From a virus (Duplodnaviria > Heunggongvirae > Uroviricota > Caudoviricetes): 23,523 bases of DNA. Below, piece by piece: positions 9,001 through 12,000 of the stretch. Location: positions 1-23,523 of IMG/VR virus record IMGVR_UViG_2703718820_000020; one strand, 5' to 3'. Every line of letters starts with the position of its first letter. Positions within the stretch are counted from its first letter, which is position 1. Made by a program: the position numbers.

Positions 9001-12000
9001 AATTAACCCCATCCCCGACCACATATCGGGGATTAAATTAAATATCTGGATTAATTAACCGGAGGATTTGTCATGCTCAAACCTCACTACGGAACCGCAT
9101 TAGTTTCTCGCGAGGACGTTAAACCCGGCACTGCAATTCTTTACAACGGGCGTTATTACATGGCGTCAGCTAACGTTAATAATGCACTTTACGCACATTC
9201 ACTGATTGAAAAAATTCGCATTATCTCAGATGCAATAGAAGTTTACCTGAACAATAAAGGCCAACCGTTAATCTCACCAGCCTGAAAGGAAATATCATGC
9301 TCAATCAAGAAATTAATATCAATGTAAAAAGCGTCATAACGCCAGCGAAAACGATAATGGGAGAAGTTTTTATGGATGATAAAATCATCGCCTATTTTGT
9401 CGTCCTGCCTGATGAGGCTATTTCTGTTATTGATACGGAAGGCAATGTTATGTTTATCGCGGAACATCCAGAAGACATCGCATTACAGGCCGCTGCATAT
9501 TTCTTCGCTAAGGAGCAAGAGGAAGAATGTAACTGCCCTGTCTGTCAGCTTTCCCGACAAATTAATTTAATGCATTAACCGGAATCAGGAGTTCCGCCAT
9601 GAACGCATACCTCACCTGCGACCGCATAGAGGAGCGTCGCTGGGCTAATCAGCAAATTCAGGATGAAAAGGATAAATGGATTGATGATCGGGCGCAGGAG
9701 CTTATCAGCATGTTCCCCGATAAACCATTGCTTATGAGCAGCCTTTTTTTACCCAAAGAAGCCCAACTGGCACTCACTGGCGAAAAAGCTGAAGAGGCGT
9801 ACAACGATTATATCTCAGCGATCGCCTATGCTCGGGCGGAAGAAGAATGGGAGAGAAAATTCTCCCCCTGTCCTTTCTGATTTTCAGGACCCAAAAAATG
9901 TTCGATATCGTTGAATTTGTTAAACAGCAAGAGCATTTATTCTGCGAGGCATTAACTGAACCGACGCTGACATGGGCGAAGGAAAGTCAGTTTGCAATTC
10001 AGCAATTCCAGAAAAATGCCTTTCTGGCTGACACAGCACGGGCAAATCTGCCCAGCGCACAGAACGCTATCATCAATGTTGCCGCCATCGGCATAACCCT
10101 GAACCCGGCCAGCAAGCTGGCGTATCTGGTCCCACGAAAAAAGGCTGTATGCCTGGATATCAGTTATATGGGGCTTCTGCATCTGGCACAGGTCACAGGA
10201 GCCATTCAGTGGGGGCAATGCAAACTTGTTTACGAGAAGGACATTTACGAGTCCAACGGTATTGACTGCGCCCCCACGCACAAATACAACCCATTCGTAG
10301 ACAGGGGCGCACGCATTGGCGGTTATTGTGTCGTAAAAACATCCGAAGGCGACTATCTGACCGAAGAGATGAGCAACAGGGAAATCGAGGTCATCAGGGC
10401 GTGCAGCAAAGCCGGAAATAACGGAGGAAGTAGCCCGTGGGATAGCTTCCCCGACGAAATGGCCAGAAAAGCCATTGTTAAGCGCGCCAGCAAATACTGG
10501 CCCCGTCGCGATCGCCTGGATACAGCTATCGACTACCTGAACACTCAGGCCGGTGAAGGTATCATCCTGAATGCTGATCACATCCCTGAGCGTGACGTCA
10601 CTCCCGCATCAGATGAGATTATCAATGAGATCACTCAGGCAATCACCGAAATTAACAAGACATGGGATGACCTGCTTCCCGTATGTTCCAAAACATTCCG
10701 TCGCACGATTGCATCACATGAAGCTCTCTCTCAGGAAGAAGCTGTCAAAACGCTTGATTTTGTCAAAAAGAAAGCTGCCAGAAACAAGGCCACGGCGGAA
10801 GCGAAAATTCACGCCACCACGGAAAATAACAGCGAGGCCGTGTCATGACACCAGAAATTATTCTCCAGCGAACTGGCGTGGATATTACCAGCCTCGACCA
10901 GGGCGATGATGGATGGCACAAGCTGAGACTCGGTGTTATCACTGCTTCAGAAGTTCACAATGTGATAGCAAAGCCACGTTCCGGCAGCAAATGGCCTGAT
11001 ACAAAAATGTCATACTTCCACACCCTGCTGGCTGAAGTTTGTACCGGCGTGGCACCGGAAGTTAACGCTAAGTCGCTCGCATGGGGAAAGCAATATGAAG
11101 ATGATGCCCGTGCCCTCTTTGAATTTATCGCGGATGTTACCGTCTCGGAAACACCCATAATTTTTCGTGACGAAAGCATGCGCACCGCCTGCTCTCCCGA
11201 TGGTTTATGCAGTGACGGTAACGGTCTTGAGCTTAAATGCCCCTTTACTTCCCGCGACTTCATGAAGTTCCGGCTTGGCGGCTTTGACGCTATCAAGCCT
11301 GCTTACATGGCCCAGGTGCAATTCAGCATGTGGGTTACAGACAAGGACGCCTGGTACTTCGCCAACTACGACCCACGCATGAAGCGTGAAGGCCTGCATT
11401 ATGTCGTGGTCGAGCGGGATGAAAAGTACATGGCGAGTTTTGATGAGATGGTGCCGGAGTTCATCGACAAAATGGACGAAGCACTGGCGGAAATTGGTTT
11501 TGTATTTGGAGAACAATGGGGGGTTAATAACTAATGGATGAAGTGATTTTTACTTATAACGAAGAATCAGCACTGACCGCCGGACAAGGTAGTTTTATTA
11601 CCGAAACGGGTGCGCATATCATTAACATCACCGAAGCAGAACTCAAGCAATCAGAAAAAGGTGCCCGATTCATTGAGTTTTCTGGAGAATCCGACGACGG
11701 ACGGAAAATCCAATATCTCAGTGTTTGTGTTCAGAAGAATGACGGCACTGAAAATAAATTTGGGGCGAGCATTATTCACGCCATGATGGGATGCACAGGA
11801 ATTGGGCAGTTAACGCAGCATATGGTTTCCGTCAGTAAATATGTTGCACCTGAGTTTCACGGAAAGAAAATCGGACTCGTCCTCCAGAAAGTATTAACCA
11901 CAAACAGAAAGACTGGCGCAGACGGTTACCAGATGGAAATCCGCATTCCATTAAATCCGCATTCCATTCATTGCAGAAACAGGGCAGACACTGAAAGAAA

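Follow-up and report, generated by a model that had tools for sequence, protein, structure and literature searches.

A predicted mosaic annealase, RecT-type in its core and Bet-type in its C-terminal domain, beside a lambda-type exonuclease in a Stx-type lambdoid prophage

In phage lambda, the Red genes for the anti-RecBCD protein, the annealase and the exonuclease follow one another in this order, and the annotated bet gene shares 4 nt with exo in an ATGA-type junction. The C-terminal domain (CTD) of Bet (Redβ) is the part of the protein bound to lambda Exo in the crystal structure 6M9K, mutation of Exo L91 or F94 abolishes complex formation, and the same CTD surface binds the C-terminal peptide of SSB (PDB 8tfu) (PMC6393309). 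RecT-family annealases paired with nucleases of the YqaJ/lambda-Exo superfamily, namely, YqaJ/YqaK of the B. subtilis skin element and Chu/G35P of SPP1, are cited in a 2023 review (PMC11611040). Among lambdoid phages, SAP type 4 has been listed with Exo (phi80), GamL (phi80) and SSB-2 (TL-2011c), TL-2011c itself being entered under that SAP type together with SSB-2; the 2025 survey concerned guessed at a 'shuffling of partner interaction domains' and declared the analysis to be beyond its scope (PMC12315714).

We analyzed a 23,523-nt stretch of DNA from a tailed phage of the Caudoviricetes (IMG/VR record IMGVR_UViG_2703718820_000020), hereafter the window, which harbors a module of this kind with the following features:

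9599-9880, plus strand: gamL, which opens the Rec module, a GamL-type anti-RecBCD protein of 93 aa (NF033500, PHROG 1050)
9898-10848, plus strand: annealase, a single-strand annealing protein of 316 aa, two-domain mosaic (intact ORF; profiles, fold, homology)
9898-10506, plus strand: predicted RecT-subfamily annealing core, annealase residues 1-203 (TIGR00616, identity to Rac RecT, fold)
10507-10587, plus strand: predicted disordered linker, annealase residues 204-230, site of domain-level crossovers (pLDDT <50; natural recombinant)
10594-10797, plus strand: Bet (Redβ)-type three-helix CTD, annealase residues 233-300, putative Exo-/SSB-binding adaptor (phmmer, fold)
10845-10848, plus strand: ATGA overlap of annealase stop and exo start, 4 nt, gtgtcATGAcacc
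10845-11534, plus strand: exo, a lambda-type 5'-3' exonuclease of 229 aa (intact ORF; PDB match, Pfam YqaJ)
11088-11135, plus strand: Exo residues 82-97 (helix E), the Bet-CTD-binding surface in 6M9K, where lambda reads KQYENDARTLFEFTSG
11534-12007, plus strand: SSB-2-like (HK620 HhaK-type) ssDNA-binding protein of 157 aa (PHROG 743; listing of TL-2011c in PMC12315714)

The four open reading frames are intact and closely packed, and the first three follow the order of lambda Red. The exo gene overlaps both of its neighbors: the ATGA junction with the annealase gene that the first-pass annotation had described is indeed a 4-nt start/stop overlap, at which translation of the two genes may be coupled, and the exo stop has one base in common with the ATG of the SSB-2-like gene (TAATG). 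The gamL gene stops 17 nt ahead of the annealase start, which we placed at the ATG at 9898, as homologs begin at the aligned residue and not at the upstream ATG at 9847. The earlier reading had recognized no gam homolog. However, the ORF at 9599-9880 matches both the NCBIfam model NF033500 (phi80_GamL; 149.4 bits, cut-off 40) and PHROG 1050 ('gam-like host nuclease inhibitor'; E 1.2e-48); our assignment rests on these two profiles, the Pfam Gam model giving no match to this ORF, and the gene is likewise annotated as GamL by RefSeq in E. coli genomes. The GamL N-terminus (MNAY...) lines up with lambda Gam around its internal Met-40, and 25 nt of the window (9585-9609) are 92% identical to that region of the lambda gene, while BLASTP between the two proteins returns an 18-residue N-terminal match only. 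The product of 11534-12007 matches PHROG 743 ('single strand DNA binding protein'; E 1.4e-50) and neither a Pfam nor an NCBIfam model, so its assignment as an SSB draws on two sources, PHROG 743 and the listing of TL-2011c in PMC12315714. With GamL upstream and the SSB-2-like gene after exo, the Rec module therefore comprises four genes, in which anti-RecBCD, SAP, nuclease and SSB functions are contiguous without extraneous genes; this layout has been called the 'ES18 functional type' (PMC12315714). The module thus differs from lambda Red in having GamL in place of Gam and an additional SSB-2-like gene after exo.

The locus is an ordinary, already catalogued and annotated recombination module of a Stx-type lambdoid prophage. 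Of 5426 complete E. coli genomes, 126 carry the module. Across it, the DNA of Ss-VASD, Lyz12581Vzw and numerous Stx2a phages is 98% identical to the window; among annotated Stx phages, many of which are inducible, the identity is 98-99%, and in TL-2011c it is 97.6% over the part covered. TL-2011c, Ss-VASD and Lyz12581Vzw carry the same annotated RecT-like annealase, exonuclease, SSB and GamL, and the annealase shares 98% identity with a cluster of 831 protein sequences that bears the source name 'recombinase RecT [Escherichia coli]'. There is no essential difference from the SAP type 4 modules, of which the window holds another copy, the likeness to phi80 being drawn from the listing in PMC12315714 only. 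An apparent DNA similarity of the integrase gene to 'lambda bet' was discarded as an artefact, since the reference set compared also contained the K-12 Rac locus, which includes intR and must be what was matched.

To assign the annealase to a family we compared it with RecT and Bet profiles. It scores 86.9 bits on Pfam PF03837 (cut-off 24), but this model cannot tell RecT from Bet, because lambda Bet also scores 115.6 bits on it. The separation of the two therefore rests on the NCBIfam subfamily models and on the comparison of folds. The annealase matches TIGR00616 ('rect') with 65.8 bits (cut-off 52.65), and residues 1-205 match the same model with 67.3 bits, whereas TIGR01913 (bet_lambda), on which lambda Bet itself reaches 169.5 bits, gave no match to the annealase in the NCBIfam search; PHROG 148 ('RecT-like') matches with an E-value of 2e-94. 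A local BLASTP alignment of the core with Rac RecT spans 159 residues at 35% identity and ends at annealase residue 202, whereas BLASTP against lambda Bet aligned annealase residues 178-300 only and no part of the Bet N-terminal domain, to which identity is about 22-25% in a forced alignment. In the AlphaFold model, which shows two confident domains with a low-confidence linker between them, the core has a pLDDT of about 88-93. Its best PDB match by Foldseek is Listeria RecT (7ub2, chain 7ub2_E; E 7.7e-7, TM 0.59, target-normalised), and none of the 50 matches listed is a structure of the lambda Redβ N-terminal domain. On the evidence of profiles and model, the core is thus RecT-type and not a divergent Bet, with putative annealing activity, and the RecT assignment made in the first-pass annotation stands for this part of the protein. 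At 72.1 bits on the Rac RecT equivalog PRK09846, below its cut-off of 296, the annealase is, as judged from sequence, a member of the RecT family and not an ortholog of Rac RecT.

The C-terminal region has a different affinity. Its C-terminal 120 residues are 43% identical to Bet, and the homology to the Bet CTD spans the last ~75 structured residues, with 51% identity between the two CTDs. A phmmer search of the PDB retrieved, for this domain, 8tfu (E 1.7e-18) and 6m9k_D (E 2.3e-14). In the AlphaFold model the domain has a pLDDT of 80-93 over residues 231-290, taken in ten-residue blocks, and of 78 for 291-300, with DSSP helices at 239-251, 256-267 and from 279, and Foldseek superposes it on the Redβ CTD crystal structures with a TM of 0.87-0.94 (rmsd 0.6-0.9 Å). 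Accordingly, bet has been replaced by a RecT-family gene as far as the annealing core is concerned, but the claim fails for the CTD, which is still homologous to that of Bet. Rac RecE/RecT has a core of the same subfamily but RecE as the partner in place of a lambda-type Exo, and the window protein's C-terminal region is a 70-residue Bet-type helical domain, for which no similarity to Rac RecT was found because the alignment ends before it. Stx2a_JNE112618 was considered as a case of CTD swap and rejected: its 98% identity ends at residue 230 (window 10588), where the gene is broken by unrelated DNA. When 1.84 billion cluster representatives were searched by phmmer, with the CTD as the sole query, 22 matches were obtained, most of which are pieces of lambda Bet or deletion derivatives of it. 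As the sequences are clustered at 50%, whole CTD classes stay hidden behind a representative, and the search provides no census of the domain. One match was an ERF-family protein (P0129) with a Bet-like CTD, encoded on a short contig with no exo immediately downstream.

The window Exo matches lambda Exo in the PDB (6m9k_A and 1avq; E 1.7e-140), with 196 of 224 residues identical (88%); at the DNA level the identity is 82%, starting at the exo start codon. The first-pass annotation was right to call it a lambda-type Exo, but at these levels it is a close ortholog and not 'nearly identical' to the lambda gene. It scores 99.7 bits on Pfam YqaJ (PF09588) and 54.5 bits on TIGR03033, below the cut-off of 68.05. 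All ten functional residues checked (W24, R28, S35, R45, L78, S117, D119, E129, K131 and Q157) are those of lambda, including the catalytic D119/E129/K131. Given its identity to the crystallised enzyme, the window Exo would be expected to be a trimeric, processive 5'-3' exonuclease.

On the Exo side of the interface, Q83, D87, L91, F94, L184 and Y186 are kept, and T90A and T95I are changed. On the side of the CTD, the Bet contacts L223, Q226, I227, R229, F249, L250, Q252, K253 and E256 correspond to V262, K265, T266, R268, F288, V289, K291, K292 and R295 of the annealase. Thus, of the four residues whose mutation destroys the lambda complex, Exo L91, Exo F94 and Bet F249 are unchanged here, and Bet L223 is replaced conservatively by Val, as L250 is; Lys253 of Bet, which caps SSB/Exo, is also kept. 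The non-conservative changes (Q226K, I227T, Q252K and E256R) lie, together with Exo T90A and T95I, at the periphery of the interface, and these substitutions could therefore alter the affinity. At 51% for the CTD and ~87% for Exo, the window has the lowest CTD identity to lambda at that level of Exo identity in our sample, and exo alone may have been replaced at a later date.

Among the 81 related, non-redundant loci of our sample, all 30 with a close lambda-Exo ortholog downstream encode a Bet-like CTD and none of the 51 others does (Fisher p = 7e-23); what follows the annealase in these others is Sipho_Gp157 (16 loci), a distant YqaJ-type nuclease (19), something else (15) or the contig end (1). 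In pairwise comparisons, CTD distance follows Exo distance with a Mantel r of 0.91 (p <= 2e-4; partial r given the N-terminal domain 0.895), whereas the N-terminal-domain distance correlates with Exo distance at r = 0.20-0.35 only; both the Fisher and the Mantel p-values overstate independence because the loci are phylogenetically related. Particular interface positions vary together as well: in Morganella, Proteus and Xenorhabdus, Exo T95Y and L91T, with Ser at the latter position in one Xenorhabdus locus, occur with CTD L223F/Y and F249M, and in three class-B loci (two from Yersinia and one from Serratia) Exo T95E occurs with CTD L223A and F249S. In 16 loci with cores 69-73% identical and similar hosts, the CTD is missing exactly when exo is missing. 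The 19 distant YqaJ-type loci, with nucleases 24-43% identical to lambda Exo, have no detectable Bet-like CTD; the skin and SPP1 pairs likewise place a RecT-family annealase beside a lambda-Exo-superfamily nuclease but differ from the window in the same two respects. Pairing as such is therefore common, and a premise limited to Exo/Bet and RecE/RecT pairs was too narrow, RecT-family annealases standing beside lambda-Exo-superfamily nucleases in the 30 close and the 19 distant YqaJ-type loci.

One natural recombinant in E. coli (P0003/L092) changes parents at about residue 200-203. Residues 1-202 of its annealase are 100% identical to a Salmonella RecT whose downstream neighbor is Sipho_Gp157, with no exo, residues 203-316 are 94-100% identical to the window annealase, and 224 of 227 residues of the Exo that follows are identical to the window Exo; the recombinant block is thus linker, CTD and exo together. 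The module shuffling proposed earlier has occurred, but between domains and not between whole genes, since the Bet-type CTD is kept. Taken together, the mosaic annealase, the distribution of 30/30 versus 0/51, the Mantel correlation and the recombinant suggest that it is between domains that cognate pairing is preserved.

We therefore consider it probable that the locus is a four-gene Red-like module whose annealase consists of a RecT core, a disordered linker and a Bet-type CTD, and whose cognate unit is the CTD plus Exo. The pairing of RecT with a lambda Exo is then explained, because the annealase bears the Exo-binding CTD of Bet on a RecT-type core, and the pair is not a mismatched RecT/Exo couple. 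The annealase-exo interval forms the centre of this module, gamL - annealase - exo - ssb2, which would belong to the early-left operon of a lambdoid prophage of the Stx type integrated at wrbA. Assuming that all four proteins are active, GamL would block RecBCD, and the Exo trimer would resect the 5' strand of a double-strand end; the Bet-type CTD would tether the annealase to Exo helix E and so load it onto the emerging 3' overhang; the same CTD surface would then pass to an SSB C-terminal tail, and the RecT-type core would anneal the strand to its complement. Physical binding of the CTD to Exo and to SSB is expected from the lambda structures. CTD and Exo, being adjacent on the DNA, would be inherited together, and the annealing core would be exchangeable through crossovers in the linker. 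With somewhat less assurance, we lean towards the wider reading that the CTD is a portable partner-specificity adaptor, co-evolving with Exo helix E and grafted repeatedly, by linker crossovers, onto unrelated annealing cores, namely, Bet, at least two RecT clades with 46-56% identity between them, and an Erf-family protein.

A different function for the CTD would be unlikely but has some points in its favor, namely, that it is kept mainly for the tail of a host or phage SSB, its correlation with Exo reflecting only the linkage of adjacent DNA. As the lambda CTD surface that holds Exo also binds the SSB peptide (8tfu; PMC6393309), the domain could be kept for this role; F249 and K253, needed for SSB binding, persist as F288 and K292, and the ERF-family protein has such a CTD without an adjacent exo on its short contig. 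Moreover, because the CTD coding region abuts exo, linkage is to be expected, and the co-variation could come from it alone. However, the pocket residues shift by clade alongside Exo helix E (F249 to M/S; L223 to F/Y/A). The SSB C-terminal tail, on the other hand, is, as far as is known, nearly invariant across Enterobacterales. The 16 loci that lack the CTD exactly where exo is absent, despite their similar cores, also speak against this explanation, and the SSB and Exo roles are compatible in any case, since lambda uses both.

We hold it to be quite improbable that a whole RecT gene has replaced bet beside a lambda exo, as first proposed, giving a non-cognate and perhaps non-interacting pair of enzymes that work independently or rely on host factors. 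The annealing core is indeed unrelated to that of Bet at the BLAST level, the DNA similarity to lambda begins abruptly at the exo start codon, and RecT is reported to bind RecE and not lambda Exo, as cited in PMC11611040. But the annealase ends in the type of domain that binds Exo (PMC6393309), the core interface residues are conserved, every relative with a close Exo ortholog and none elsewhere among the 81 loci has this domain, and the natural recombinant transfers CTD and exo as a single block. There is very little chance that the annealase is a divergent Bet outside the RecT family: PF03837 covers both proteins, the last 120 residues resemble Bet, and PHROG 252 ('Bet-like') matches residues 169-289 weakly, but the subfamily models, PHROG 148, the higher identity of the core to Rac RecT and the Foldseek match to Listeria RecT (LiRecT) all argue against it. 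Finally, a decaying prophage remnant with a non-functional gene pair is scarcely credible, for although unrelated DNA interrupts the annealase at residue 230 in some related Stx2a phage records and short partial proteins occur in databases (P0004, P0078), the four window ORFs are intact and tightly packed, the catalytic and DNA-handling residues of Exo are those of lambda, and the module is conserved in many inducible Stx phages and in the complete E. coli genomes counted above.

In the two-component recombinases of phages, partner specificity appears to reside in a small CTD that can be swapped and moves together with the gene for the nuclease. Were this confirmed, it would account for the seemingly promiscuous combination of annealase and nuclease types among lambdoid phages, supply a rule for predicting compatible annealase-nuclease pairs, and offer recombineering parts, namely, RecT-type cores that dock on lambda-type Exo and possibly also orthogonal CTD/helix-E pairs. 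If the CTD is indeed a portable adaptor, the cognate pair would be CTD and Exo rather than annealase and Exo, and the lambda-like, Morganella-like, Yersinia-like and window (T95I/I227T) variants would be naturally orthogonal pairs. It would also answer the question of the 2023 review about the use of a Redβ-like CTD by RecT-type annealases (PMC11611040), and provide the analysis that lay beyond the scope of the 2025 survey (PMC12315714).

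We read four closely spaced ORFs, all on the plus strand, from the window sequence between 9599 and 12007:

9599-9880, plus strand, GamL ORF, 93 aa (NF033500 phi80_GamL and PHROG 1050)
9898-10848, plus strand, annealase ORF, 316 aa (TIGR00616 'rect' and Pfam RecT)
10845-11534, plus strand, Exo ORF, 229 aa (PDB 6m9k_A and 1avq, Pfam YqaJ)
11534-12007, plus strand, SSB-like ORF, 157 aa (PHROG 743 'single strand DNA binding protein')

The annealase stop and the exo start share ATGA (10845-10848), and in the TAATG at the end of exo a single base is common to the exo stop and the start of the next ORF. 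The annealase start at the 9898 ATG is favoured over the upstream ATG at 9847, since homologues start at the residue aligned with 9898. The RecT-type annealase gene joined by ATGA to a lambda-type exo, as described in the first-pass annotation, is real, and the coordinates given there for the pair, 9898-11534, are exact according to the ORF ends and the homologue-supported start. The accompanying statement that there is no gam homolog is incorrect, since the ORF at 9599-9880 matches NF033500 with 149 bits (cut-off 40) as well as PHROG 1050. GamL is 50% identical to lambda Gam in the first 18 residues (MNAY…), the remainder being unalignable, and a stretch of 25 nt (9585-9609) that takes in the start codon of gamL and its ribosome-binding site shares 92% identity with lambda gam around the internal Met-40 (2103-2127 of our lambda sequence, L001).

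Judging from its sequence, the 229-aa product of the third ORF is orthologous to lambda exonuclease. It matches the PDB sequences 6m9k_A and 1avq (E 1.7e-140) and Pfam YqaJ (99.7 bits), shares 196 of 224 residues (88%) with lambda Exo, and has the lambda residue at ten catalytic or DNA-handling positions (W24, R28, S35, R45, L78, S117, D119, E129, K131 and Q157). The exo DNA is 82% identical to that of lambda; the similarity spans 10844-11519, setting in at the exo start codon and stopping about 15 nt short of the exo stop.

The annealase matches Pfam RecT, a model unable to tell RecT from Bet, as lambda Bet itself scores 115.6 bits on it, whereas the NCBIfam subfamily models TIGR00616 and TIGR01913 do separate the two. 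The annealase scores 65.8 bits against TIGR00616 'rect' (cut-off 52.65) and does not match TIGR01913 bet_lambda, the only one of these models that lambda Bet matches. These results bear out the RecT assignment of the core and argue against a divergent Bet. Over residues 56-202 the annealase shares 35% identity with Rac RecT. In the AlphaFold model, built on 44 homologues, the core (residues 1-203) has a pLDDT of about 88-93, and Foldseek placed it with Listeria RecT 7ub2 (E 7.7e-7); no N-terminal-domain structure of lambda Redβ was among the 50 PDB matches listed.

The C-terminus has a different affinity. A PDB sequence search with the whole annealase returned only the lambda Bet/Redβ C-terminal domain (CTD), matching residues 225-299 to 8tfu (E 1.7e-18) and 6m9k_D (E 2.3e-14), and BLASTP aligned only residues 178-300 with lambda Bet, at 43% identity. 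The linker (residues 204-230) was modeled with low confidence (pLDDT below 50), and the CTD is predicted to be helical (DSSP helices 239-251 and 256-267, and a third from 279), with a pLDDT of 80-93 for each block of ten residues between 231 and 290 and of 78 for 291-300. The predicted CTD superposes on Redβ CTD crystal structures with a TM score of 0.87-0.94 and an rmsd of 0.6-0.9 Å. By sequence and model, then, the annealase is a mosaic of a RecT-type core and a Bet-type CTD.

The Redβ CTD is the Exo-binding part of lambda Bet, and the same surface also binds the SSB C-terminal tail (PMC6393309). Helix E of Exo (residues 82-97) makes contact through Q83, D87, T90, L91, F94 and T95, together with L184 and Y186, and is received in a Bet pocket formed by L223, I227, F249 and L250 and flanked by Q226, R229, Q252, K253 and E256; mutating Exo L91 or F94, or Bet L223 or F249, abolishes the complex (PMC6393309). 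The window Exo has Q83, D87, A90, L91, F94, I95, L184 and Y186 at these positions, and the annealase has V262, K265, T266, R268, F288, V289, K291, K292 and R295 at the Bet contact positions. Three of the four complex-critical residues are thus identical to lambda and the fourth is a conservative Leu to Val change, while the interface periphery differs. The earlier reading of a mismatched RecT/Exo pair fails, as the annealase has a Bet-type Exo-binding domain; it is also countered by the module make-up, with GamL and an SSB-like protein, which is a common, catalogued combination.

We scored the annealase C-terminus and downstream ORF in 80 loci from GTDB representative genomes and in loci fetched via protein look-up, after removing duplicates and truncated genes. 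Close homologues have cores about 67-78% identical to that of the window, and their last ~70 residues, 10% to 96% identical, fall into discrete classes. In neighbourhood look-ups, a lambda-Exo orthologue (50-74% identical) lies downstream of the Bet-like and related CTD classes, and in the Salmonella class, whose C-terminus is unrelated, a Sipho_Gp157 gene and no nuclease follow. A Bet-like CTD was present in 30/30 loci whose nuclease is a close orthologue of lambda Exo (identity of at least 50%) and in none of the 51 others (Fisher p = 7e-23, for related loci); the latter comprise 16 loci with Gp157, 19 whose nuclease is a distant YqaJ-type enzyme (24-43% identity), 15 others and one contig end. 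For 30 pairs (28 fetched loci, the window and lambda), CTD and Exo distances are correlated (Mantel r = 0.91, p <= 2e-4; partial correlation given the core, 0.895), the core-Exo correlation being only 0.20-0.35, and interface residues covary by clade. Given the relatedness of the loci and the direct adjacency of exo to the CTD coding region, these statistics show co-inheritance and are not proof of co-adaptation.

The E. coli annealase P0003 is a natural recombinant: residues 1-202 are 100% identical to P0117, a Salmonella RecT with a Gp157 neighbour, residues 203-316 are 94-100% identical to the window annealase, and the downstream Exo shares 224/227 residues with that of the window. The parent switch in the DNA, at about nucleotide 600, lies at the core end, so that a single crossover moved linker, CTD, exo and the next gene together.

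Several other sequences were noted. An ERF-superfamily annealase (P0129; GCA_015689235.1, 1.8-kb contig; PF04404 at residues 58-191) terminates in a clearly Bet-like CTD (…KTWDADLLPLCSQIFNRQI…AVKAFDFLKKKAAA), so that this CTD is not restricted to Bet and RecT cores; a GamL-like gene precedes it and a 78-aa ORF follows, with no exo at that position. P0122, the N-terminus of lambda Gam joined directly to the Bet CTD, and P0136, a lambda Bet with residue ~140 joined to the CTD by internal deletion, both seem to have arisen by deletion within lambda red regions that are present in public assemblies. In the Stx2a-converting phage Stx2a_JNE112618 (LC727845.1), the annealase gene is 98% identical as far as residue 230 (window 10588), followed by unrelated sequence, with CTD and exo missing; we rejected a domain swap here, as it looks like a deletion/insertion breakpoint at the CTD start. 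Two contigs of 1.9 kb, labelled as Micromonospora sp. and Streptomyces sp., combine a RecT of enterobacterial type (71% identity to the window core) with a Gp157 gene; they are probably contamination, being very short contigs with genes of this type within assemblies of actinomycetes.

At 98% identity, the module recurs in Shigella phage Ss-VASD, in Escherichia phage Lyz12581Vzw and in dozens of Stx2a-converting phages, and it is complete in 126/5426 complete E. coli genomes. The whole window resembles such Stx-type phages and TL-2011c, and ends with an integrase and wrbA. The tyrosine integrase ORF (21614-22948; Arm-DNA-bind_2 and Phage_integrase) overlaps the beginning of an ORF encoding a WrbA-like FMN reductase and continuing past the window end (23523), which points to a prophage end at wrbA. 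A 'bet' match at the integrase region was spurious and is explained by the K-12 Rac locus, which includes intR and to which the DNA here is about 70% similar. Downstream of the module, 12213-14164 and 14267-15778 encode a PHROG 204 protein, a DUF2303 protein (221 bits), one function-unassigned protein and two Ead/Ea22-like proteins, early-left accessory genes typical of Stx-type lambdoid phages. Upstream, plus-strand Rfam gathering-score matches to isrK Hfq-binding RNA (8116-8191, 58.7 bits) and C4 antisense RNA (8216-8303, 77.1 bits) lie directly 5' of a Rha/antirepressor-like ORF (8220/8355-9002; Pfam Phage_pRha), overlapping its start, a layout that resembles P1/P7-type C4-ant immunity. An sRNA-Xcc1 match (18163-18252, plus strand, 65.4 bits against a gathering score of 53) is directly followed 3' by an AntA/AntB antirepressor ORF (18264-18932).

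The locus itself is nothing new, the combination being common and already catalogued: RefSeq labels the products RecT family recombinase, lambda exonuclease family protein, hypothetical protein and GamL, and 'SAP sequence type 4' appears together with Exo and GamL (phi80), and also with SSB-2 (TL-2011c), in a survey of 325 lambdoid phages published in 2025, which ventures that partner interaction domains have been shuffled (PMC12315714). A 2023 review states that it is not known whether RecT-type annealases bind partners via a Redβ-like CTD (PMC11611040). Our analysis of co-inheritance at the level of domains adds modestly to an idea that others have already put forward. Most likely, the Bet-type CTD would load the RecT-type core in a lambda-Red-like manner, for which we infer both binding and activity.
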